This document shows positions 5,060 through 44,736 of a DNA stretch of 64,000 nt, one piece after another (within the stretch, counting starts at the first letter, position 1; each line of letters begins with the position of its first letter). The notes under the pieces were generated by a model. That model was not told where the DNA came from. It saw only the letters and a list, made by a program, of their open reading frames with translations, and searched no databases. Both the position numbers and the translations under genes were made by a program. Source of the DNA: Escherichia coli. GTDB taxonomy: Bacteria; Pseudomonadota; Gammaproteobacteria; Enterobacterales; Enterobacteriaceae. The stretch lies in NCBI RefSeq assembly GCF_024502345.1, contig NZ_JALDNN010000002.1; one strand, 5' to 3'.

Positions 5060-5074
5060 GGTAATGACTCCAAC

Positions 5075-5578
5075 TTATTGATAGTGTTTTATGTTCAGAT
5101 AATGCCCGATGACTTTGTCATGCAGCTCCACCGATTTTGAGAACGACAGCGACTTCCGTCCCAGCCGTGCCAGGTGCTGCCTCAGATTCAGGTTATGCCG
5201 CTCAATTCGCTGCGTATATCGCTTGCTGATTACGTGCAGCTTTCCCTTCAGGCGGGATTCATACAGCGGCCAGCCATCCGTCATCCATATCACCACGTCA
5301 AAGGGTGACAGCAGGCTCATAAGACGCCCCAGCGTCGCCATAGTGCGTTCACCGAATACGTGCGCAACAACCGTCTTCCGGAGCCTGTCATACGCGTAAA
5401 ACAGCCAGCGCTGGCGCGATTTAGCCCCGACGTATCCCCACTGTTCGTCCATTTCCGCGCAGACGATGACGTCACTGCCCGGCTGTATGCGCGAGGTTAC
5501 CGACTGCGGCCTGAGTTTTTTAAATGGCGGAAAATCGTGTTGAGGCCAACGCCCATAATGCGGGCGGTTGCCCGGCAT
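5075..5578 (-). CDS. insB: IS1 InsB (expressed as InsAB' by frameshift)
   Basis: 167-aa ORF with IS1 InsB sequence. Confidence 0.9.
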
Positions 5579-5772
5579 CCAACGCCATTCATGGCCATAT
5601 CAATGATTTTCTGGTGCGTACCGGGTTGAGAAGCGGTGTAAGTGAACTGCAGTTGCCATGTTTTACGGCAGTGAGAGCAGAGATAGCGCTGATGTCCGGC
5701 GGTGCTTTTGCCGTTACGCACCACCCCGTCAGTAGCTGAACAGGAGGGACAGCTGATAGAAACAGAAGCCAC
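5497..5772 (-). CDS. insA: IS1 InsA
   Basis: 91-aa [43 protein letters not shown]... Confidence 0.95.
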
Positions 5773-6000
5773 TGGAGCACCTCAAAAACACCATCATACA
5801 CTAAATCAGTAAGTTGGCAGCATCACCGACTTCCACATCAAGGCGGCGCCAGTAATGCTTTTGTGATACCGTCTCAGATCCCACGATCCCACTGACGGGC
5901 TTATAGTCATAGTCCGTCTGAGTCTGCCCGTGTTTAACTTTCCTCGTTATTTTCTTCTCGACGACATATCCGGTTACGCCCGTCACTGGCTGTTCACTGT

Positions 6001-8984: not shown

Positions 8985-10042
<1,058 letters not shown>

Positions 10043-10245
10043 TTGAGGGCTATCTGTCACAGATTTAAGGGTGGTTCGTCACATTTGATCTGGAAAGTTG
10101 AGGGTGATTTGTCACAGTTTTGCTGTTCCCTCCCTGGCATCCTGCGCTTACTCATAGTTTTTTTGGCTGTAACCGGTAGTGGAGCCAGAATTGAGGGCAA
10201 TTTGTCACCCTATCCTGAGGGTAGTTTGTCACACTAGATTTTCTC
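10043..10245 (+). repeat. incC-like iterons downstream of repE
   Basis: Repeated TTGAGGG(N)ATTTGTCACA motifs. Confidence 0.8.
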
Positions 10246-10254
10246 CCTCTTCCC

Positions 10255-10778
10255 GGGTAATGGTGCCAACTTACTGATTTAGTGTACGATGGTGTTTTTG
10301 AGGTGCTCCCGTGGCTTCCATCTCCATCAGTTGTCCCTCCTGCTCAGCTACTGAAGGCGTGGTGCGTAACGGTAAAAGTACTGCCGGACATCAGCGCTAT
10401 CTCTGCTCTCACTGCCGTAAAACATGGCAGCTACAGTTCACTTACACCGCCTCTCAGCCCGGTACACACCAGAAAATTATTGATATGGCCATGAATGGCG
10501 TCGGATGTCGCGCCAGTGCACGCATTATGGGCGTTGGCCTCAACACGATTTTACGACACTTAAAAAACTCAGGCCGCAGTCGGTAAACTCACGCATACAA
10601 CCGGGCAGTGATGTGATTGTCTGCTCTGAAATGGACGAACAGTGGGGCTACGTCGGCGCTAAATCACGCGAGCGCTGGTTGTTTTACGCGTATGACAGGA
10701 TACGGAGGACGGTTGTTGCACACGTCTTCGGTGAACGTACTATGGCCACGCTGGAGCATCTTCTGAGCCTGCCGTCGG
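10255..10778 (+). mobile_element. IS1 copy, 3'-truncated (about 520 bp)
   Basis: IS1 IRL and insA intact (10311..10586); insB diverges after about codon 90. Confidence 0.85.
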
Positions 10779-12217
10779 ACTTTCAGGGCGCGTGGTTCCT
10801 TTTAAACACCAGCTCTGTATCTCTTTTAAAGATCCTTTAATAAATTCTGTAAACCCATAACCTGTTCATCGCCTGCATTGTGGACCGGCTCGGGAGAATG
10901 CCCGCCCTTGCAGCGACCAGACGGTCGCGCCGGTTCGGCAACACCAGAGAGAGCTCCCATCGCTTCGCGACGGGCCCCGACCGGAGAACCAAATTAGTTA
11001 CAGCATTCATAAGGAAGCTCATCATAAAACCAGCGCCGGTTTGCCGGCCAGGTGCCCCTCCCCACCACTGAAAAGCGCCGCCGCCCCCGGCCGAAGGCCG
11101 GGGAACACCATCGCTTATAATGATGGGTGTTGTAACTAACCTTCTTCATCGCTTTAGGTGGAGCTGCGGTGAGTTTCTGAGTACACGCTCGTAAGCGGCC
11201 CTGACGGCCCGCTAACGCGGAGATACGCCACGGCTACGGCTTACGCCTTGCCGTGACCACTCCGACCGCGTACAGAGGCATCTGAGACGTTTTTAGCGGG
11301 TATAGCTTTGCAGCTACCGTGTTAAGTTCCCTGGTGTCGCTGAGATAGTTGATGAACATCCCCCTAAGCGTCAGCAGCAAGCTGCCGCCGCTAAGGCCCC
11401 GGAAATCACGCCCTTTACGTCGTAAACGCCGTAAAGCCCGCTCACCGGGGTTAAAAGGGATTACTTTGACTTCTTCATTGCTGTTAGCGGGTTAAGGCTA
11501 ATCAGGGCAGGGGGTAGGGTGGCAGAATTTATAGCCCGGCAACCGGCTACGCCGGGCTTTCGGCGCCATTTGACTCCACAGACACATGTAACCTCATCTG
11601 GCGCCTCCATGCCGCTGACGCGGCATCCAGAAGTTTCCCGATGCTGTAAGTCTTAACGTCTGCTTTGTGCCAAAAGCGGAAGTAACTAACAGCAGTCTGT
11701 GTGAAAATACGGGGAGCAGGTTAAAGGTGCCTGGCCGTTGTTGAGGTGGAGTTGCAGGGCCGCACCTTCTATATCCTAGAAGTCGATACATCTGACGGTG
11801 TTTGTTCTCTATCAACTTTGCTATTACGGCTGAAGTCGCCTCTGGATTGGCCCAAGCAGCTTACGCTGTTGGCAGAAGAGTTAACCCAGAAATCACTGCA
11901 CTGGCCAAATCAGCGGTTAAAAATGCTCTGCGGCAAGGATGGCTATTCCGGCATTCCTCACCCGCAGACCAAATCCGTGGATAAGGGCAAGTTGCATGAG
12001 GAGTCGATAGAGCACTGGGCGGCAAGATTTCACAGTTGGATGACATCAATCTAACGTATTGAAGAGATTTAATACAAGACGAACTATGTCTACGTTTGAG
12101 GCTTTATATCTTGTTGTTATAGTAAAGATGGTGCATGATTGTAATCAATTTGATGATAACAATAGCGCTATATGGATCACATCACTACATTCTCCTTTCA
12201 TTTCATAGCTGCGGCAC
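10779..12217. other. ORF-poor, GC-rich, hairpin-rich 1.4 kb segment upstream of the WYL regulator gene
   Basis: No ORF over 102 aa on either strand; multiple GC-rich stem-loops (for example AGCCCGGCAACCGGCTACGCCGGGCT). Confidence 0.5.
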
Positions 12218-13126
12218 ATGATTAGTTCTCCCTCTAAACGGGTCGAGGATTTGAGCCTTGCCCAGCGCGAGCGGCTGGCCTACATCGACTTCCAGCTCTA
12301 CTTCTTCGGTGATATTGGGCGCCCAGACCTGATTGAGCGCTTCGGTGTGGCGCCGGCAGGGGCAACTCGCGATCTGGCTCTTTACCGGGAAATCGCACCG
12401 CAGAACATTGAATTCGATGGTAGCAACAAGATCTACCGCATAGGCAAGGCGTTTGTTCCAATTTTCGAGCACTCGACGCAACGTGTTTTGTCGACATTCG
12501 CGCTTGGGTTTGGAGATGGTGTGAACGTCGACTCGCGGCCGCTGCTGCCATGCGAGTCTCCAGTGGCTTTGAGCTGCCCACGGATGGATGTGCTGGCCCC
12601 AATCTGCCGGGCTATCCACGCCAAGCGGCCAGTAGCCATCCGCTACCACTCAATGAGCAGCGGTGAGACCGAGCGGATCATTGTGCCCTTTGCGCTGGTC
12701 GATACCGGCCTGCGCTGGCACGTCCGAGCTTTTGATCGCAAGAGTGGCGAGTTCCGCGACTTCGTTGTCACCCGCATTGAAGCGCCTATCCTGCTTGATG
12801 AAGAACCCAAGGCTAACGAGCGTTCGGACAACGACATTCAGTGGACTCGGATCGTGGAGTTGGACTTAGTGCCTCATCCGCGCTTTGCGCGTCCCGAGGT
12901 CATCAAGATGGACTACGGGATGACCAACGGGTCGATCAAGATGCGCGTGCGGGCTGCTGTTGCGGGCTACATGCTGCTGCACTGGAGCGTGGACTGCTCG
13001 CCTGACCATCGCCTCAAAGAAGAACAGTATCGCCTATGGCTTAGCGATCCGCTGGTGCTGTACGGAGTCGAGAGCGCCAAGCTGGCTCCAGGATACCAAG
13101 CCCTGAGCAGTTCCAAGGGATCATAG
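12218..13126 (+). CDS. WYL-domain transcriptional regulator, BrxR/CapW-like (wHTH + WYL + C-terminal extension)
   Basis: N-terminal wHTH-like segment LAQRERLAYIDFQLYFFGDIGRPDLIERFGV; WYL-like core VAIRYHSMSSGETERIIVPFALVDTGLRWHVRAFDRKSGEFRDFVVTRI; 302 aa, typical BrxR size. Confidence 0.7.
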   Translation: MISSPSKRVEDLSLAQRERLAYIDFQLYFFGDIGRPDLIERFGVAPAGATRDLALYREIAPQNIEFDGSNKIYRIGKAFVPIFEHSTQRVLSTFALGFGDGVNVDSRPLLPCESPVALSCPRMDVLAPICRAIHAKRPVAIRYHSMSSGETERIIVPFALVDTGLRWHVRAFDRKSGEFRDFVVTRIEAPILLDEEPKANERSDNDIQWTRIVELDLVPHPRFARPEVIKMDYGMTNGSIKMRVRAAVAGYMLLHWSVDCSPDHRLKEEQYRLWLSDPLVLYGVESAKLAPGYQALSSSKGS

Positions 13127-14882: not shown

Positions 14883-15598
14883 ATGCATAAGAAGCAACAA
14901 CAAGACCAAAGCCAGATCAAGTGGATTTCCGATTTCATCTGGAACATTGCCGATGACCGCTTGCGCGACGTCTATGTACGCGGCAAGTACCGCGACGTGA
15001 TCCTGCCCTTCACCGTACTGCGACGGCTTGATGCCGTGCTAGAGACGACGAAGGATGCTGTGCTAGAGCGCAAGAAGCTCCTTGATGCCCATAAAGTGGT
15101 CGAGCAGGACGGCGCTCTGCGTATGGCAGCAGGCCAAGCCTTCTACAACGTATCGGAATTTACTCTGGCCAAGCTCAAGGCCAGTGCCGCAGGCCAGCGG
15201 CTGCGTGATGATTTTATTGCGTATCTGGATGGATTTTCGCCCAACGTCCAGGAAATCCTCACCAAGTTCAGTTTTCACAACCAGATCCAGAAGTTGGTGG
15301 ATTCGCACGTTCTGGGCTATTTGATAGAAGATTTCCTCGACCCGGAGGTCAATCTCTCGCCGTTGCCGGTTAAGGATGCCGACGGCCGCATCAAGCTGCC
15401 GCCGCTGGACAACCATGGCATGGGCACGGTGTTCGAAGAGCTGATCCGCCGCTTTAACGAAGACAACAACGAAGAGGCTGGTGAGCACTTCACACCGCGC
15501 GATGTGGTGAAGCTCATGGCCAAGCTACTGTTCCTGCCTGTGGCCGAGCGCATCGAGTCTAGCACCTATTCGCTCTACGATGGCTCCTGTGGCACAGG
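14883..15598 (+). pseudogene. hsdM: Type I restriction-modification methyltransferase HsdM, N-terminal about 238 codons only, truncated by IS911
   Basis: HsdM_N-like start and N6-methylase motif GEHFTPRDVVKLM; reading frame runs into the IS911 terminus at 15599. Confidence 0.7.
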
Positions 15599-15933
15599 TG
15601 AAGTGGCACACTGAATTTGGCCACCTGAACAGAGGTGATATGCTCACCTCAGAACAACACAGGTGCTCCAATGAAAAAAAGAAATTTCAGCGCAGAGTTT
15701 AAACGCGAATCCGCTCAACTGGTTGTTGACCAGAACTACACGGTGGCAGATGCCGCCAAAGCTATGGATGTTGGCCTTTCCACAATGACAAGATGGGTCA
15801 AACAACTGCGTGATGAGCGTCAGGGCAAAACACCAAAAGCCTCTCCGATAACACCAGAACAAATCGAAATACGTGAGCTGAGGAAAAAGCTACAACGCAT
15901 TGAAATGGAGAATGAAATATTAAAAAAGGCTAC
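15599..15933 (+). mobile_element. IS911 (IS3 family) left end fragment with orfA truncated at its frameshift site
   Basis: IRL TGAAGTGGCACACTGAATTTGG; Orf[24 protein letters not shown]... ends at ..EILKKA where IS30 begins. Confidence 0.85.
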
Positions 15934-17154
15934 TGTAGATTCAATTGGTCAACGCAACAGTTATGTGAAAACATGGGGTTGCGGAGGTTTTTTGAATGAG
16001 ACGAACATTTACAGCAGAGGAAAAAGCCTCTGTTTTTGAACTATGGAAGAACGGAACAGGCTTCAGTGAAATAGCGAATATCCTGGGTTCAAAACCCGGA
16101 ACGATCTTCACTATGTTAAGGGATACTGGCGGCATAAAACCCCATGAGCGTAAGCGGGCTGTAGCTCACCTGACACTGTCTGAGCGCGAGGAGATACGAG
16201 CTGGTTTGTCAGCCAAAATGAGCATTCGTGCGATAGCTACTGCGCTGAATCGCAGTCCTTCGACGATCTCACGTGAAGTTCAGCGTAATCGGGGCAGACG
16301 CTATTACAAAGCTGTTGATGCTAATAACCGAGCCAACAGAATGGCGAAAAGGCCAAAACCGTGCTTACTGGATCAAAATTTACCATTGCGAAAGCTTGTT
16401 CTGGAAAAGCTGGAGATGAAATGGTCTCCAGAGCAAATATCAGGATGGTTAAGGCGAACAAAACCACGTCAAAAAACGCTGCGAATATCACCTGAGACAA
16501 TTTATAAAACGCTGTACTTTCGTAGCCGTGAAGCGCTACACCACCTGAATATACAGCATCTGCGACGGTCGCATAGCCTTCGCCATGGCAGGCGTCATAC
16601 CCGCAAAGGCGAAAGAGGTACGATTAACATAGTGAACGGAACACCAATTCACGAACGTTCCCGAAATATCGATAACAGACGCTCTCTGGGGCATTGGGAG
16701 GGCGATTTAGTCTCAGGTACAAAAAACTCTCATATAGCCACACTTGTAGACCGAAAATCACGTTATACGATCATCCTTAGACTCAGGGGCAAAGATTCTG
16801 TCTCAGTAAATCAGGCTCTTACCGACAAATTCCTGAGTTTACCGTCAGAACTCAGAAAATCACTGACATGGGACAGAGGAATGGAACTGGCCAGACATCT
16901 AGAATTTACTGTCAGCACCGGCGTTAAAGTTTACTTCTGCGATCCTCAGAGTCCTTGGCAGCGGGGAACAAATGAGAACACAAATGGGCTAATTCGGCAG
17001 TACTTTCCTAAAAAGACATGTCTTGCCCAATATACTCAACATGAACTAGATCTGGTTGCTGCTCAGCTAAACAACAGACCGAGAAAGACACTGAAGTTCA
17101 AAACACCGAAAGAGATAATTGAAAGGGGTGTTGCATTGACAGATTGAATCTACA
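15934..17154 (+). mobile_element. IS30 (1221 bp, complete)
   Basis: Terminal TGTAGATTCAATTGGTCAACG ... CATTGACAGATTGAATCTACA; 383-aa IS30 transposase. Confidence 0.92.
15996..17147 (+). CDS. IS30 transposase
   Basis: 383-aa ORF with HTH N-terminus and DDE core, matches IS30 Tnp. Confidence 0.92.
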
Positions 17155-18199: not shown

Positions 18200-18721
18200 T
18201 TAGTGGCGGATCTGCGCCAGGTCGTCTTCCGTCAGGCCGGTCATTTTCATAACGGTATTGCGGTCAATGCCGTTATGCAGCATGGTGCGGGCAATTTTCA
18301 GAGTGGCCTGACGCTCACCTTCTGAACGGCCCTTTTCAATACCCCGTTGTTCACCGAGCTGGATGCCCTGCTCAATCCCCTTCTGGATACCCTTCTGCTC
18401 AAGCTGTTGTGCGATGGTCATGAGTGCGTCTCCGTGTTGCGGCACACGCTGTGCCAGTTCGCGTACAAAGGCTTCGGCGTCAGCTGTCTCGCCTGCCTGG
18501 AGTATATAGTGTACCAGCGATATGACCTGGGATGAAGACAGATAGCCGGCCAGCAAAATGGGCGCCAGCCGGTCAACCAGTTCAGCGAGGTCGCGCTGGT
18601 GAATATGTTTCTGCAGTAAGGTCAGAGCGGCCATACTGCGGTGGCCGGCGATGTCATCATCCGGAATAACGGTCACATCAACCAGCGGGAAAGCGCCGCT
18701 GTAGAGTGTGCCTGCCAGCGC
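18200..18721 (-). pseudogene. Rpn-family (YhgA-like, PD-(D/E)XK) recombination-promoting nuclease, C-terminal part only; N-terminus lost to IS1
   Basis: C-terminal signature ..QKGIQKGIEQGIQLGEQRGIEKGRSEGERQATLKIARTMLHNGIDRNTVMKMTGLTEDDLAQIRH; frame continues to the IS1 boundary. Confidence 0.65.
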
Positions 18722-19489
18722 GGTAATGGTGCCAACTTACTGATTTAGTGTATGATGGTGTTTTTGAGGTGCTCCAGTGGCTTCTGTTTCTATCAGCTGT
18801 CCCTCCTGTTCAGCTACTGAAGGCGTGGTGCGTAACGGTAAAAGTACTGCCGGACATCAGCGCTATCTCTGCTCTCACTGCCGTAAAACATGGCAGCTAC
18901 AGTTCACTTACACCGCTTCTCAACCCGGTACGCATCAGAAAATCATTGATATGGCCATGAATGGCGTCGGATGTCGCGCCAGTGCACGCATTATGGGCGT
19001 TGGCCTCAACACGGTTTTACGTCACTTAAAAAACTCAGGCCGCAGTCGGTAACCTCGCGCATACAACCGGGCAGTGATGTCATCGTCTGCGCTGAAATGG
19101 ACGAACAGTGGGGCTACGTCGGGGCTAAATCACGTCAGCGCTGGCTGTTTTACGCGTATGACAGGATACGGAGGACGGTTGTGGCGCACGTATTCGGTGA
19201 ACGCACTCTGGCCACGCTGGAGCGTCTTCTGGGCCTGCTGTCGGCCTTTGAGGTCGTGGTATGGATGACGGATGGCTGGCCGCTTTATGAATCACGCCTG
19301 AAGGGAGAACTGCACGTAATCAGCAAGCGATATACGCAGCGCATTGAGCGGCATAACCTGAATCTGAGGCAACATCTGGCAAGGCTGGGCAGGAAGTCAC
19401 TGTCGTTCTCAAAATCGGTGGAGCTGCATGACAAAGTCATCGGGCATTATCTGAACATAAAACACTATCAGTAAGTTGGAGTCATTACC
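18722..19489 (+). mobile_element. IS1 (768 bp, complete)
   Basis: IS1 termini; insA 18777..19052; insB 18971..19474; no target duplication. Confidence 0.95.
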
Positions 19490-37862: not shown

Positions 37863-38051
37863 GGTGATGCTGCCAACTTACTGATTTAGTGTATGATGGT
37901 GTTTTTGAGGTGCTCCAGTGGCTTCTGTTTCTATCAGCTGTCCCTCCTGTTCAGCTACTGACGGGGTGGTGCGTAACGGCAAAAGCACTGCCGGACATCA
38001 GCGCTATCTCTGCTCTCACTGCCGTAAAACATGGCAACTGCAGTTCACTTA
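37863..38051 (+). mobile_element. IS1 left-end fragment (about 189 bp)
   Basis: GGTGATGCTGCCAACTTACTGATTTAGTGTATGATGG...; truncated at the junction with an IS110-like end sequence. Confidence 0.85.
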
Positions 38052-40163: not shown

Positions 40164-40585
40164 AGAAGGATATAAAAGCCAAAATCGCCGCCCTGACCTG
40201 CGTCCATTTCGAGGTAACCGAAAACGCCGAGAATCTGCTGCATAATTCTCTTGCCGCCTGGCAGAGCCCACAGGATACCTCACTGTGGCTCGACGACTTC
40301 GGCTCCGGCTACGCGGGAATTAACGCTATTCGCGGTTATCACTTTGACTATGTGAAAATTGATAAGGATTTTTTCTGGCACCTGATGCGCAAAGAGTTCG
40401 GCCGCCAGCTGATGGATGCGCTGGTGACCTTTTTATCGCGCAACCATCATAATGTGATTATTGAAGGTGTCGAAAGCGAAGCCCATAAAGAATGGCTGCA
40501 GGGAATGGAGTGGTTTGCTATCCAGGGACATTACTGGCGGGAAGTCAGTATTGAACAACTGGTCGCCGATGATATTGCCATGTAA
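40164..40585 (+). pseudogene. mrkJ: EAL-domain c-di-GMP phosphodiesterase MrkJ, C-terminal about 140 codons (N-terminus removed by IS110-family insertion)
   Basis: EAL motifs DDFGSGYAG, KIDKDFF, EGVE; convergent with mrkF across a shared terminator. Confidence 0.7.
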
Positions 40586-42259: not shown

Positions 42260-44736
42260 AGCGTTTCCTTTGTTTTTTCCTGACTTAATTCCACCGAGCA
42301 CTGTCCGCCGCTCCACTTAACCGTGGCCTTCGGCGCGCTGGCGTCGCTGATAAACATCATGCTGCCCTGCCCCACCACGCCGATCTCTTTCCCGGACGGA
42401 CCGAATATCGTGGCGGCAAACGGTAACGGCAGGCCATTAGCCTGGCGCGCCCGCAGAGTGATGTTGTTCTGCAGCGTGGTATCGAAGGAGACCTTGACCA
42501 CGCTCCCTTCCCACGGCACCACCTGCGCCACGGTACTGCCGAAGGCGACATCGTCATTGCTGCCTTTCGGGTCAATTTCAACGGAATTTATCCGGTAAGG
42601 CCGCAGATACGGCAGAATGGCGTAGCCGTTGCTGTCGATGCGGGTACCCGGCGAACCGGGCAACATCGCGCCCGCGGCATCTTTCGCTTCGATCAGCGCC
42701 ATAGTAGTGCCGGTTTCCGGCGAGAATACGACGCCGTGCTGATGCGCGATTAGCGTCCCGCTGGCGCCCACGCCGCTCTGGCGATAGCCTTCGCCCTGGC
42801 TATAGCTGCCGTTCAGCGTCGTCCACGGGGTACGGTAACTGCCGTTCAGCGCCACATCGTGCTGGCCGCCAGTGGCGGTGGTCGTCGACACGCCGTAGTT
42901 AAGGTTGTTTTCGCTATCCAGCGAACCGTTGACGCCAATCTGCGAGCTGGCGAAACGCGAATTGTTAAACGCGGTATTCGATGTCAGGTTAGCGGTGCGG
43001 TTTTCACCGAACCACAGCGGGTAGCTAAAGTTGAGAGACACTCGATCGTCGCGGCGGTGGCCGGAACTATCCGGGGTATAGACGCGCTGGGCGCTGACCG
43101 ACCACGAGAGCCGACCGTACATGTTGTTGTAACTAAACTGATACTGCTTTTCCGTCCCCGAACGGTTCCAGTAATCCGCCACCCGACCGCTCAGATAAAA
43201 ACCGCCCCAGCCGTCCGGCAGGTTCTGGTTGACGGTAAAGGTCATCCCGTTTTTCTGGCGCCACACGGTGTAGTTGCTGTTGTAGTTCTTCTCCTGATCG
43301 ACGGCGTAGAGGGCGTCGTTCAGGTTGTAGTAGCCTTTGGTGGAGTAGCGATACGCCGCCAGCACGATGCTGGTCTGGGTTTCGGTAAACATGCGGTTAA
43401 AGGTGGCGCGATAGCTTTGACCGTGCTCGTCAAGGGTATCGCTCTTCAGCCGCGAGTGAGTCACGTCGAAGGAGAGCGCGCCGATGCCGGTGTTCATCCC
43501 GGTCCCCAGCAGGAACGCCTGATAGTCATCAAATCCGGTGACGCCGGTATAGCCGGTAAACAGGTTATTTAAACCATGCTGCCAGGTTCCCTGGTAGAGC
43601 ATCGGTTTATTACGCAGCGAACTATCGTCGACTTTACCGGCGGAGAGCGCGTAGCGGGTCATCCCCGGACGCAGCAGCTGCGCTACCGAGGCGTAAGGTA
43701 CGCTGAATACCTCGACCGAACCATCGCCCTCTTTAACCGACACTTCAAGGTCGCTACCGTAGCCGGAAGGATAGACATCCTGCAGGGTAAACGGCCCCGG
43801 CGGCACCGTGGTCTGATAGATAATATTGCTGCCCTGGCGCACCGTCACCAGGGCGTTGCTTTGCGCCACGCCGCGAATTTCAGGGGCGTAGGAGCGCATG
43901 CCGTCGGGAAACATATTGTCATCGGTCGCCAGGTTAACCCCGCGCAGGCCGATGGTGTCAAAGAACTCGCCGTTGGTAAAAATCTGCCCGCCGCTGACTA
44001 TCGAGTTAATCTGCGGAATCGGCCGCTGCAGATAGGTCTGGTTGCTGTTCCAGTGCGCTTTCCCCTGCTGCTGCTGCCAGTTCAGGTTACCGATATGCTT
44101 GAGCAGCCAGCCGTCCCACGACAGGCCCGCGTTAACGCCAAGATACGCGCTGCTGTTATCGGAACCGTTGGCCGAGGAGATATGGCTGTTCCAGGCGTTG
44201 GCCATCCAGCCTAAATTCAGCGCCGCAACGCCTTTATCCCAGAATTGCGGGCTGACAAAGTTTTTCAGGCGCTGATCTTCGTAGATTTGCGGTACGGCAA
44301 TATCCAGTCTCAGGGAGGACTGAATCAGCGTGTCTTTGACGTTATCTTCGTGACGCCACTCCTGCAGGCGTCCGCAGAAGCCCTCTTTTTCGCTGAGCTG
44401 CGGATTTAATTTTTCCGGCGAAATCCCATACTGCATCAGCATCGCTTTGGTATAGCAGACGCCCATTTTGCCGTCTTTACCGGCGGTGATTTTCAGGTCG
44501 TAGCGCCCTTTCCATTCGCCGTTGGTATAGACATCAAGGGAGTAGACGCCCTCGCTGATAGCGCTGGTCGAGAAGCGCGACAGGTCGACCTTTTCGCGAC
44601 TGCCGACGATAAAACCATCGTTAAATTGATAGATCGTTCCCGGGTTTTCCTGTCCGCTGGAAAATGGCGGAAAGCAGCACAGCGCGATGGCGATCGCGGT
44701 GCTTAATCTTCCCGGGCAGAATGACCTCTGCTTCAT
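42250..44736 (-). CDS. mrkC: Fimbrial usher MrkC
   Basis: 828 aa outer-membrane usher. Confidence 0.85.
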   Translation of the reverse strand: MKQRSFCPGRLSTAIAIALCCFPPFSSGQENPGTIYQFNDGFIVGSREKVDLSRFSTSAISEGVYSLDVYTNGEWKGRYDLKITAGKDGKMGVCYTKAMLMQYGISPEKLNPQLSEKEGFCGRLQEWRHEDNVKDTLIQSSLRLDIAVPQIYEDQRLKNFVSPQFWDKGVAALNLGWMANAWNSHISSANGSDNSSAYLGVNAGLSWDGWLLKHIGNLNWQQQQGKAHWNSNQTYLQRPIPQINSIVSGGQIFTNGEFFDTIGLRGVNLATDDNMFPDGMRSYAPEIRGVAQSNALVTVRQGSNIIYQTTVPPGPFTLQDVYPSGYGSDLEVSVKEGDGSVEVFSVPYASVAQLLRPGMTRYALSAGKVDDSSLRNKPMLYQGTWQHGLNNLFTGYTGVTGFDDYQAFLLGTGMNTGIGALSFDVTHSRLKSDTLDEHGQSYRATFNRMFTETQTSIVLAAYRYSTKGYYNLNDALYAVDQEKNYNSNYTVWRQKNGMTFTVNQNLPDGWGGFYLSGRVADYWNRSGTEKQYQFSYNNMYGRLSWSVSAQRVYTPDSSGHRRDDRVSLNFSYPLWFGENRTANLTSNTAFNNSRFASSQIGVNGSLDSENNLNYGVSTTTATGGQHDVALNGSYRTPWTTLNGSYSQGEGYRQSGVGASGTLIAHQHGVVFSPETGTTMALIEAKDAAGAMLPGSPGTRIDSNGYAILPYLRPYRINSVEIDPKGSNDDVAFGSTVAQVVPWEGSVVKVSFDTTLQNNITLRARQANGLPLPFAATIFGPSGKEIGVVGQGSMMFISDASAPKATVKWSGGQCSVELSQEKTKETLCR

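Follow-up and report, generated by a model that had tools for sequence, protein, structure and literature searches.

A 1.4-kb ORF-free segment upstream of a brxR-like gene is very probably a relic of the IncFII replication origin region, followed by a tnsE tail and a predicted brxR promoter

The window analysed here is a 64,000-nt stretch of Escherichia coli DNA, in which the segment at positions 10779-12217 lies between a truncated IS1 and the gene of a WYL/BrxR-like regulator, which starts at 12218. The left boundary of the feature is at 10776/10777, where the IS1 fragment ends. We found that the segment is a mosaic of several pieces, not a single element, and that nothing in it behaves like an unknown protein. 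Its parts and the IS1 fragment beside it are as follows.

10256-10776, plus strand: truncated IS1 (nt 1-521 of 768), 89.4% identical to IS1B of R100 by blastn
10777-11721: IncFII oriR-distal DNA, which lies directly 3' of repA in thousands of plasmids including R100
10777-10875, plus strand: right-hand, AT-rich repeat part of the IncFII oriR, from alignments with KpINF133, R100, pYV and Shigella plasmids
10982-11013, minus strand: left Ter site (terRL type), core GCTGTAACTA at 10995-11004, with one mismatch and G at Ter position 6
11070-11113, no strand assigned: two-tier hairpin between the Ter sites, outer stem AAAAGCG/CGCTT(T>A)T, inner stem CCCCGGCC/GGCCGGGG at 11085-11103
11120-11142, plus strand: right Ter site (terRR type), ATGATGGGTGTTGTAACTAACCT, with the perfect core GTTGTAACTA at 11129-11138
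11183-11275, minus strand: block G, a candidate primase-dependent priming signal with invariant cores at 11183-11229 and 11255-11270
11293-11483, no strand assigned: 191-nt hairpin-rich insertion of the IncFII(K)-type lineage only, with TTAGCGGGT repeats at its flanks
11484-11633, no strand assigned: block H, a second conserved element, with a CCGGC-N3-4-GCCGG hairpin, a GGCGCC...GGCGCC long-range stem and a CATGCCGC/GCGGCATG hairpin
11697-11724, plus strand: CTGTGTGAAAATACGGGGAGCAGGT, where the IncFII(K) backbone ends and meets the island, possibly an att-like half site
11725-12054, plus strand: 3' remnant of a Tn7-like tnsE for 532 aa, with the final 109 codons kept
12055-12217, plus strand: brxR promoter region, AT-rich intergenic DNA
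12096-12123, plus strand: sigma-70-like promoter between tnsE and brxR, TTGAGG-16-TATAGT with an extended -10 TG, from a promoter scan

The initial annotation had called the segment ORF-free, GC-rich and hairpin-dense, unlike the other intergenic DNA of the window. The first of these statements held on both strands: the longest ORF lying fully within 10779-12217 has 102 aa (11746-12054, plus strand), which is at chance level, as shuffles of equal composition gave a longest ORF of 100 ± 23 aa. Only two ORFs above 102 aa reach the edges, the IS1 read-through at 10505-10840 and a minus-strand frame at 12203-12649, and 10841-12202 (1362 nt) is the longest run in the window without coverage by an ORF of at least 103 aa. 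The GC content is 0.523-0.53 for the whole segment against 0.512 for the window. The richness belongs to approximately the first 950 nt (0.568 at 10779-11724) and not to 11725-12217 (0.451), where the final ~200 nt are AT-rich (0.33-0.38). The contrast with the remaining ORF-free stretches was confirmed, their GC of 0.365-0.50 being below that of the segment. Folding was computed for single-stranded DNA, with z-scores against dinucleotide shuffles and two values per sub-segment. Four sub-segments were more stable than their shuffles, namely 11055-11150 (z -3.6/-3.2), 11165-11300 (-1.7/-3.0), 11301-11450 (-2.3/-3.4) and 11500-11640 (-2.0/-2.4). No extra stability was found at 10860-10990 (-0.7/-0.1), and 11725-12217 showed no excess of GC-corrected folding stability. 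Hairpin density thus applied to roughly 10860-11640, where both hairpins quoted earlier were located (11084-11103 and 11533-11558), but not to the remainder, and for the 1.44-kb block overall the GC-corrected stability was only at roughly the 10th percentile of the window.

The first ~945 nt of the segment match more than 5000 plasmid records and are found 247 nt 3' of IncFII repA in K. pneumoniae, E. coli and other plasmids. Among nine compared plasmids, including R100, the homologous DNA begins 170-250 nt after repA, and a synteny check showed that intact IncFII plasmids do carry the ~945-nt sequence beside this gene. R100 is 80% identical over 227 nt that include block G, the right-hand Ter site and the hairpin, and 50 consecutive nt are the same in both; the left-hand Ter site falls in a separate 56-nt match (77%). 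A structured non-coding RNA, a decayed gene of the defence island, and the remnant of an integration or recombination site had been offered as explanations; the main identity, the IncFII oriR cis region that occupies about two thirds of the segment, was missed. This ori-distal region is known biology, already well studied in IncFII plasmids.

The 188-bp oriR has a DnaA box at one end (PMC5883639), and the order of IncFII elements is oriR, terRL, terRR and the leading-strand start, according to a review (PMC10331603). The segment has the position of the ori-distal region, 3' of repA1 in intact plasmids, and two opposed Ter sites 3' of oriR; it has neither a complete 188-bp oriR with the DnaA box TTATCCACA nor repA1 in cis. 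IS1 takes the place of the DnaA box and of ~78 nt of the RepA-binding part of oriR. We saw no TTATCCACA-like DnaA box near the expected position beside the oriR remnant, and tblastn returned no homologue of IncFII RepA within the 64-kb window. The IS1/oriR junction is identical in at least 429 plasmids. The segment is a relic of the IncFII (RepFIIA) family and no working member of it: an IncFII(K) replicon was once present on the plasmid or recombined with it, and was then destroyed by IS1. The close match to intact replicons could merely mean recent ancestry. Taken together, we are highly confident that 10777-11721 derives from an IncFII replication origin region, followed by a dead tnsE tail and the brxR promoter.

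Both Ter sites carry the defining features of such sites, a core GTTGTAAC(T)A and G-C at position 6, the right one perfectly and the left one with one mismatch, a T-to-C substitution in the core. R100, EC2001, pYV and Shigella plasmids have a perfect GTTGTAACTA at the left position, and the right site is invariant in 12 of 13 homologues. The two sites form a 17-nt inverted repeat, 112 nt apart. TerB of MG1655, which lies upstream of tus, served to calibrate their polarity, and by this orientation the left site is predicted to halt leftward-moving forks and the right site rightward-moving ones; fork arrest in the window is likewise proposed by analogy with MG1655 TerB. A third GTTGTAACTA at 43126 was rejected as a Ter site and is probably a chance occurrence, because it has T instead of G at position 6 and lies within coding-like DNA. 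The inner stem of the hairpin between the Ter sites is the first of the two hairpins quoted in the initial annotation. When 10 homologues were folded singly, four inner-stem sequences and one outer-stem variant were found with pairing kept in all, so this hairpin covaries over four stem variants.

Block G starts 45 nt past the right Ter site. Its two cores (47 and 16 nt) are invariant in 13 of 13 plasmids of the IncFII, IncFII(K), pYV and IncI-gamma/K1 types, among which the flanking DNA is 70-90% identical, and the variable hairpin between the cores (11230-11255) shows two compensatory pairs. The minus strand folds better than the plus strand in all 13, by 6 kcal/mol on average. Plasmid G sites reportedly consist of highly conserved blocks parted by a dispensable variable domain (attributed to Tanaka et al. 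1994), an arrangement that block G shares. It also lies where the leading strand should start, 3' of oriR and the ter sites in the order given by PMC10331603. From this position, the extreme conservation and the R1/R100 literature, block G is probably the IncFII G site, acting on the minus strand. The R1/R100 work behind this assignment is that of Masai & Arai 1989 and Tanaka et al. 1994. A plasmid G site is defined by primer synthesis through primase alone, on single-stranded DNA coated with SSB and from a CTG. The CTG primase start triplet is not conserved among the homologues on either side of block G; on the 3' side of the minus strand, R100 has TACTG and the window TACTC. For block G we claim no homology to the complementary-strand origin of phage G4, as the local alignment score was 22 against 18.7 ± 3.2 for shuffles; phage and plasmid G sites reportedly bear little resemblance to each other.

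Beyond block G lies the 191-nt insertion, which we recognised from overlapping blast segments in three homologous plasmids and which is missing from R100, pYV and IncI/K plasmids. Block H follows, always just past block G in the compared plasmids and 76-88% identical to R100 (40435-40519), pYV, IncI/K and others. It may be a second single-strand initiation signal. The second hairpin quoted earlier, 11533-11558, falls within block H, but as a conserved hairpin it was rejected: its 5' arm is lineage-specific and absent in R100-type sequences, and what is conserved is the smaller CCGGC/GCCGG hairpin with the same 3' arm.

Could the hairpin-rich part instead encode a structured non-coding RNA, regulatory or antisense, of the plasmid or the defence island? 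The four sub-segments that fold better than shuffles would suit such an RNA, as would the compensatory changes of the inter-Ter hairpin, whose flanking A and T tracts resemble those of a bidirectional terminator, and the few compensatory pairs within blocks G and H. However, Rfam gave no match at E ≤ 1 over 10000-13000 on either strand, and the promoter scan of both strands found no promoter-like site 5' of the hairpins. With 13-14 diverse homologues, RNAalifold detected only two compensatory pairs in block H, as in block G, and covariation terms near zero (+0.22 and -0.43 kcal/mol for the two blocks), which gives no support to a conserved RNA structure but leaves room for a DNA structure. Moreover, most stems are sequence-invariant, the invariant 47-nt run is more readily explained by a protein that reads the sequence than by an RNA helix, and in intact plasmids the region sits in the known oriR/ter/priming zone. 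On these grounds the non-coding RNA proposed earlier was not borne out, and we regard it as highly improbable.

An equally improbable account is that the whole segment represents one or more decayed protein genes of the defence island or of the replicon, for example repA4. The repA4 region holds the ter sites and is required for stable maintenance (PMC4398462). The 128-aa repA4 ORF of R100 spans the Ter sites and block G and matches 10954-11313 of the window by tblastn (E=7e-18), and 11725-12054 is a genuine gene remnant, that of tnsE. Against this, the repA4 frame has four in-frame stops here, its 40% identity is concentrated where the DNA is invariant, the indels among homologues are not multiples of three, and IncFII(K) plasmids have no RefSeq CDS in the interval. 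The tnsE remnant covers 23% of the segment, and tblastn with the TnsE of pPSV found nothing of tnsE upstream of 11725. The initial annotation had named frameshifted gene remnants across the whole segment as the result that would count against its view; none run that far, the repA4 frame with its four stops included. A decayed gene is thus found at 11725-12054 only, where the last 20% of a Tn7-like tnsE remains, and not in the remainder; in pPSV, tnsE is followed by the same WYL gene. Conservation at the DNA level, the lack of an Rfam match and the weak covariation fit cis-acting replication signals better than a non-coding RNA or a segment-wide decayed gene.

TnsE of pPSV aligned with the window at 97.2% identity over 109 aa, which are codons 424-532 of 532, plus the stop codon (tblastn), and RefSeq names the gene at 11725-12054 'Tn7-like element transposition protein TnsE' in many plasmids. 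A full Tn7-like TnsE has ~530 aa and belongs to a tnsABCDE operon, while here residues 424-532 only are kept, with no upstream tns genes beside the remnant; IncFII DNA abuts it at 11722-11724. The tnsE of the window is a fossil, and there is no transposon. In pPSV, the intact tnsE directly adjoins the WYL regulator gene, and as the WYL/BrxR gene is the natural 3' neighbour of tnsE, we read the defence genes as Tn7-like cargo. The WYL/BrxR-like gene at 12218 is served by the predicted promoter at 12096-12123, whose hexamers are kept in pPSV and a K. oxytoca plasmid at 88-90% overall identity. An inverted repeat, TTGTTAT...ATAACAA, 5' of brxR was considered as an operator and rejected, since it is not conserved in pPSV.

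Two recombination junctions lie in the segment, IS1/oriR at 10776/10777 and backbone/tnsE remnant at 11722-11724, and C600p23 diverges from the window after 11721 and AW1.7 after 11724. The block of tnsE remnant, BrxR, DUF262 and type I restriction-modification genes is the left end of an island whose other end, in related plasmids, carries mcr-10.1 and xerC, and it co-occurs with xerC-mcr-10 in a published set of mcr-10 plasmids (plasmid list of PMC9603504). We considered whether ~11697-11722 might be the attB/attL site of the XerC-type tyrosine recombinase adjacent to mcr-10, the whole island from the tnsE remnant to mcr-10 having been delivered as one unit. In KpINF133 p5, a block of ~18 kb from the tnsE remnant to mcr-10.1-xerC sits between the ori-distal region and an N6-methylase cluster that follows directly after the ori-distal region in C600p23. 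The junction sequence CTGTGTGAAAATACGGGGAGCAGGT recurs at the opposite end of that block as CTGCGTGAAAAATCGGGGAAAAGT, ~40 nt upstream of xerC, a 21/26 imperfect direct repeat, and a second copy of the CTGCGTGAAAAATCGGGGAAAAGT type stands beside xerC in the window as well (50677-50695, minus strand). In addition, a study cited in PMC9045214 reportedly describes recombination sites flanking a Cronobacter mcr-10 integrative element. On the other side, the gene at the start of the island is truncated, which points to an illegitimate deletion more than to a clean att site, and the 21/26 repeats that flank the 18-kb island of KpINF133 have no evident dyad-symmetric core. The similarity at the right junction runs on for ~80 nt into backbone-like sequence, which could come from homologous exchange between backbones that had diverged. 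Break points at 11626/11634 and 11680, besides 11722, are seen in other plasmids, E. coli AW1.7 has different cargo at the same junction with no recombinase found on the far side, and most mcr-10 plasmids have no complete recombination sites (PMC9045214). The earlier suggestion of an integration or recombination remnant was borne out in part, by the two junctions and by an imperfect repeat of the backbone side beside xerC; delivery by XerC at a putative att site is a tentative idea that we think unlikely.

In plasmids R1 and R100, RepA and DnaA open oriR, DnaB unwinds away from repA, and primase primes the displaced strand at the G site, where the leading strand starts. Between oriR and this start point are two opposed Ter sites, bound by Tus, so that a wrong-way fork is stopped at once and the productive fork after one round. 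In the explanation that we favour, 10777-11721 is the cis-acting DNA 3' of repA in the IncFII family (R1, R100/NR1, Klebsiella IncFII(K) type), whose single-stranded-DNA signals account for the density of hairpins and the GC richness, and whose action in cis accounts for the absence of ORFs. An IS1-associated rearrangement took away repA together with the DnaA box and the left portion of oriR, which is why the relic cannot initiate replication. It retains both Ter sites, the hairpin between them, block G as the putative minus-strand G site, and block H. By analogy with the known Tus-Ter systems, we infer that Tus may still bind these Ter sites, and the relic would probably form a polar fork barrier at a distance of ~1-2 kb from the RepE replicon next to it. 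The defence genes under BrxR control came as Tn7-like cargo and now belong to the mcr-10 island.

TnsE prefers sites of replication termination and lagging-strand synthesis. A speculative extension, to which we give little credence, is that ~11697-11724 is a recurrent docking site for islands, entered by the island with the tnsE remnant, BrxR, type I restriction-modification genes and mcr-10 through XerC-type site-specific recombination, or by a Tn7-like ancestor drawn by this preference of TnsE, which would make the IncF fork-trap neighbourhood a hotspot for defence and resistance genes. A separate speculation is that block H could be an undescribed second single-strand initiation signal common to IncFII and IncI/K plasmids.

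In thousands of IncF plasmids this ~1-kb interval is left unannotated by automatic pipelines and so seems mysterious, yet it is the best-studied kind of cis-acting plasmid DNA, comprising an origin, Ter sites and a priming signal. A retained Tus fork trap beside a RepE-type origin could affect replication of the plasmid. The conservation maps of block G, the covarying inter-Ter hairpin and block H, the last shared with IncI/K, could aid the annotation of IncF and IncI origins.

Compared with the oriR-distal 'repA4' region of R1 and R100 (NR1), the window has the same position relative to repA, the same order of elements and the inverted pair of Ter sites. Its copy is orphaned, with a truncated IS1, beside a RepE-type replicon, where repA, the DnaA box and the left portion of oriR should stand; it also differs in the T-to-C change of the left Ter core, in the insertion between blocks G and H that marks the IncFII(K) lineage, and, relative to R100, in a closed repA4 reading frame. 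With the Tus-Ter traps of the E. coli chromosome (TerA-J) and of R6K it shares the core GTTGTAACTA and G at position 6, and by their orientation its sites should let forks into the interval but not out. Unlike those traps, the putative trap here is only ~130 bp wide and adjoins an origin rather than lying opposite to it.

Like the G sites of phage G4, R100, R1 and ColIb-P9, block G is a structured single-stranded DNA element just past the origin and Ter sites, with invariant blocks common to IncFII and IncI-type replicons and, by predicted folding, three stem-loops in the template of the leading strand. Unlike the G4 origin, it shows no significant sequence similarity and no conserved CTG triplet. 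With regard to the xerC-mcr-10 module, that part of the window lies 39 kb from the tnsE remnant and is inverted, and the island is interrupted by an IS30-family element at 15600. As for Tn7, whose TnsE selects targets in the TnsABC+E pathway, the window encodes 109 residues that are 97% identical to the C terminus of a TnsE annotated with 532 aa. Unlike Tn7, it keeps the last 20% of tnsE, with no tnsABCD and no transposon ends found beside it; its cargo, the defence genes regulated by WYL/BrxR, follows tnsE immediately, which is also where the variable cargo of Tn7 begins.

In the segment at 10779-12217, directly upstream of the BrxR-like (WYL-domain) regulator gene that starts at 12218, the longest ORF has 102 aa, which confirms the initial annotation. 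Since shuffled sequence of the same composition gives a longest ORF of 100 +/- 23 aa, the segment matches non-coding DNA in its ORF content. Of the stretches in the 64-kb window that lack an ORF of at least 103 aa, 10841-12202 is the longest, and its GC content (0.523) is higher than that of the others (0.365-0.50). The reported GC richness holds for 10779-11724 (0.568) but not for 11725-12217 (0.451). Both hairpins originally quoted are present (11084-11103 and 11533-11558). When folded as single-stranded DNA against dinucleotide shuffles, 11055-11150, 11165-11300, 11301-11450 and 11500-11640 were more stable (z from -1.7 to -3.6, depending on the strand), 10860-10990 showed no stability excess, and the whole block ranked only near the 10th percentile within the window for GC-corrected stability. 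Given this uneven GC content and folding, the description "GC-rich, hairpin-dense" applies to approximately 10860-11640, and the final 500 nt do not match it.

A megablast search with the segment matched more than 5000 plasmid records, and it is present on plasmids of 2168 of the 5426 complete E. coli genomes. Intact plasmids carry the first ~945 nt of the segment starting ~247 nt past the end of repA, the IncFII initiator gene, in an interval to which RefSeq assigns no gene. In R100, the corresponding ~940 nt separate repA from the gene annotated after it and are likewise free of RefSeq-annotated genes. An IncFII(K) replicon is the source of the ORF-free, GC-rich, hairpin-dense DNA: it is the ori-distal region of that replicon, now orphaned and joined to a fragment of tnsE and the promoter of brxR, and its odd composition is the typical look of cis-acting replication signals. 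The suggestion of a new structured RNA was rejected.

Features of the segment and of the distant mcr-10.1 locus
10777-10875: AT-rich repeats of oriR, retained (alignment)
10995-11004, minus strand: left Ter core GCTGTAACTA, terRL type (sequence match)
11129-11138, plus strand: right Ter core GTTGTAACTA, terRR type (sequence match)
Block H (11484-11633), feature 1: small CCGGC/GCCGG hairpin
Block H, feature 2: GGCGCC...GGCGCC stem; GGCGG...CCGCC in R100
Block H, feature 3: CATGCCGC/GCGGCATG hairpin
12055-12217: AT-rich tnsE-brxR intergenic region
50736-51731: xerC, 99.9% identical to p5, inverted
52098-53717: mcr-10.1, 99.9% identical to p5, inverted

Alignment placed IS1 nucleotide 521 in fusion with the middle of oriR at 10776/10777. 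The window's oriR lacks the DnaA box TTATCCACA together with ~78 nt to the right of it; no DnaA box was found at the expected place in the remnant, and tblastn with IncFII RepA gave no match in the window. At least 429 plasmids share this junction, in every case beside a RepE-type initiator, so the rearrangement is old and has been inherited widely. A RepE-type (F RepFIA-like) initiator gene lies at 9239-10042 (NCBIfam equivalog, E=1e-160), with two adjacent DnaA-box-like 9-mers upstream at 8986-9002, and this replicon (8986-10042) is likely the working one beside the dead IncFII origin. Additional IS1 copies at 5060-5827, 18716-19489 and 37863-38051 (a complete copy with 100% identity to IS1B, a complete copy with 93% identity and a 189-nt fragment) could have mediated the inversions and deletions of the window.

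At the other end, tblastn with the 532-aa TnsE of pPSV aligned 11725-12051 to residues 424-532 with 97% identity and found nothing upstream of 11725 in the window. With tnsE confined to this interval and no RefSeq gene annotated by intact plasmids across the segment's first ~945 nt, a gene decayed across the whole length was dismissed. In pPSV, a tnsD fragment and an intact tnsE precede the same WYL-domain regulator gene, so the BrxR-like gene and the genes after it were cargo of a Tn7-like element. The intergenic region contains a promoter-like site (12096-12123) whose hexamers are conserved in pPSV. Further into the island, the type I methyltransferase gene is intact for residues 1-239 only (14883-15599) and is followed by an IS30-family element (transposase ORF 15996-17147), so the restriction-modification part is disrupted in the window.

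The IncFII(K) plasmid C600p23 is collinear with the window to 11721 and then continues into an N6-methylase gene cluster. In K. pneumoniae KpINF133 plasmid p5 (LR890193), a block of ~18 kb is inserted between the ori-distal region and this cluster, in the order tnsE' (the 3' remnant of tnsE), brxR, DUF262, hsdMSR, IS elements, mcr-10.1 and xerC. Its left-junction CTGTGTGAAAATACGGGGAGCAGGT recurs as CTGCGTGAAAAATCGGGGAAAAGT at the right junction, ~40 nt from xerC. In the window, the second junction copy is found on the minus strand at 50677-50695, beside xerC and mcr-10.1; the copy region (50617-50700, minus strand) is imperfect (GTGAAAAATCGGGGAAAAG...), lies ~40 nt upstream of xerC and matches the IncFII(K) backbone end at 11701-11719. 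Here xerC and mcr-10.1 (50736-53717, plus strand) are inverted relative to the tnsE'-BrxR island and 39 kb away from it, and plasmids bearing tnsE' include many published mcr-10 plasmids (list from PMC9603504). These repeats could be attL/attR sites of a XerC-type integration, with 11697-11724 as a candidate attachment site, and a citing paper reports such sites for a Cronobacter element (PMC9045214), but we consider this unlikely: the right-junction similarity continues ~80 nt into backbone-like DNA, the island begins on its left with a truncated gene, breakpoints of other plasmids fall at 11626/11634 and 11680 in addition to 11722, and E. coli AW1.7 carries different cargo at the same junction with no recombinase at the far side. 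The copy at 50617-50700 could be either an att-type repeat or a diverged backbone copy. The idea of a recombination scar was right in spirit for the two junctions (IS1/oriR at 10776/10777 and backbone/tnsE' at ~11722). Defence-like cargo directly after the same ori-distal region differs among plasmids, suggesting a variable, defence-rich neighbourhood.

Cargo following the IncFII(K) ori-distal region in three plasmids
L009, 9771-14142: patatin-like phospholipase with RdcB and a dynamin-family protein
L010, 7150-12399: DUF4268 with SIR2 and an ATPase
L003, 7148-12121: N6-methylase cluster

Within the orphaned ori-distal region, the first quoted hairpin belongs to a two-tier structure between the Ter sites (11070-11113); its outer stem reads AAAAGCG/CGCTTTT, and its inner stem is GC only. 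The same structure formed in nine of ten homologues folded individually, the exception being the divergent Ebug sequence. The inner stem occurs as four sequences (CCCCGGCC, CCGGCCC, CCGGGCC, CCCGCCC), and the outer stem of pYV is altered but compensated. As all variants pair, the structure is under selection; it could serve as a terminator or an insulator, or it could form on the displaced strand.

Block G (11183-11275) has two cores, 11183-11229 and 11255-11270, that are invariant in all 13 plasmids compared (IncFII, IncFII(K), Yersinia pYV and one Salmonella IncI-gamma/K1 replicon), whereas its flanks are only 70-90% identical; the variable hairpin between the cores shows two compensatory pairs. 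Its minus strand, the template for the leading strand leaving oriR, folds into three stem-loops and is the more stable of the two strands in 13/13 homologues (by a mean of 6 kcal/mol), which, with invariant cores, is effectively one observation. The block starts 45 nt past the right Ter, where the leading-strand start has been placed (PMC10331603). On this basis, we infer that block G is a candidate primase-dependent G site of the IncFII family. Plasmid G sites reportedly have conserved blocks in two domains with a dispensable domain between, and block G agrees. Its similarity to the phage G4 origin was not significant, and the homologues compared share no conserved CTG triplet beside it. The Salmonella IncI-gamma/K1 plasmid CP082710 (1272-1651) keeps the right Ter, the inter-Ter hairpin and blocks G and H downstream of its rep gene, so the cis-acting module is common to more than IncFII.

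Block H is 74-88% identical to the DNA directly after block G in R100, pYV, IncI/K and other plasmids, and its three conserved structural features include two compensatory pairs in total. The 5' arm of the second quoted hairpin was found only in the IncFII(K) lineage, in which a hairpin-rich insertion of 191 nt (11293-11483) with TTAGCGGGT repeats at its flanks separates blocks G and H; this insertion is absent from R100, pYV and the IncI/K replicons. Block H could plausibly be a second single-strand initiation signal, and an R1 miniplasmid is said to carry two ssi signals.

Both Ter sites have G at Ter position 6, and they pair up as an inverted repeat of 17 nt, 112 nt apart. The right Ter is invariant in 12/13 homologues, and R100, EC2001, pYV and Shigella plasmids have a perfect GTTGTAACTA as their left Ter. 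In MG1655, TerB carries GTTGTAACTA on the plus strand just upstream of tus and halts clockwise forks; by analogy, the plus-strand site should stop rightward forks and the minus-strand site leftward forks, giving a predicted inward-facing trap. A third perfect GTTGTAACTA at 43126-43135 (plus strand) has T rather than G at Ter position 6, lies in GC-rich coding-like DNA and is probably due to chance. The R100 repA4 ORF has 128 aa; as a coding gene it is not conserved in the window, where four stops fall in frame and the amino-acid identity coincides with invariant DNA. Little in the segment is new, as it represents known IncFII-type biology. The R1 sites terRL and terRR, located after the minimal origin and before the leading-strand start, enforce unidirectional replication and then terminate it (PMC10331603; PMC4999828), and the R100 "repA4 region" carries ter sites and is required for stable maintenance (PMC4398462); the Ter arrangement in the window agrees with both descriptions.
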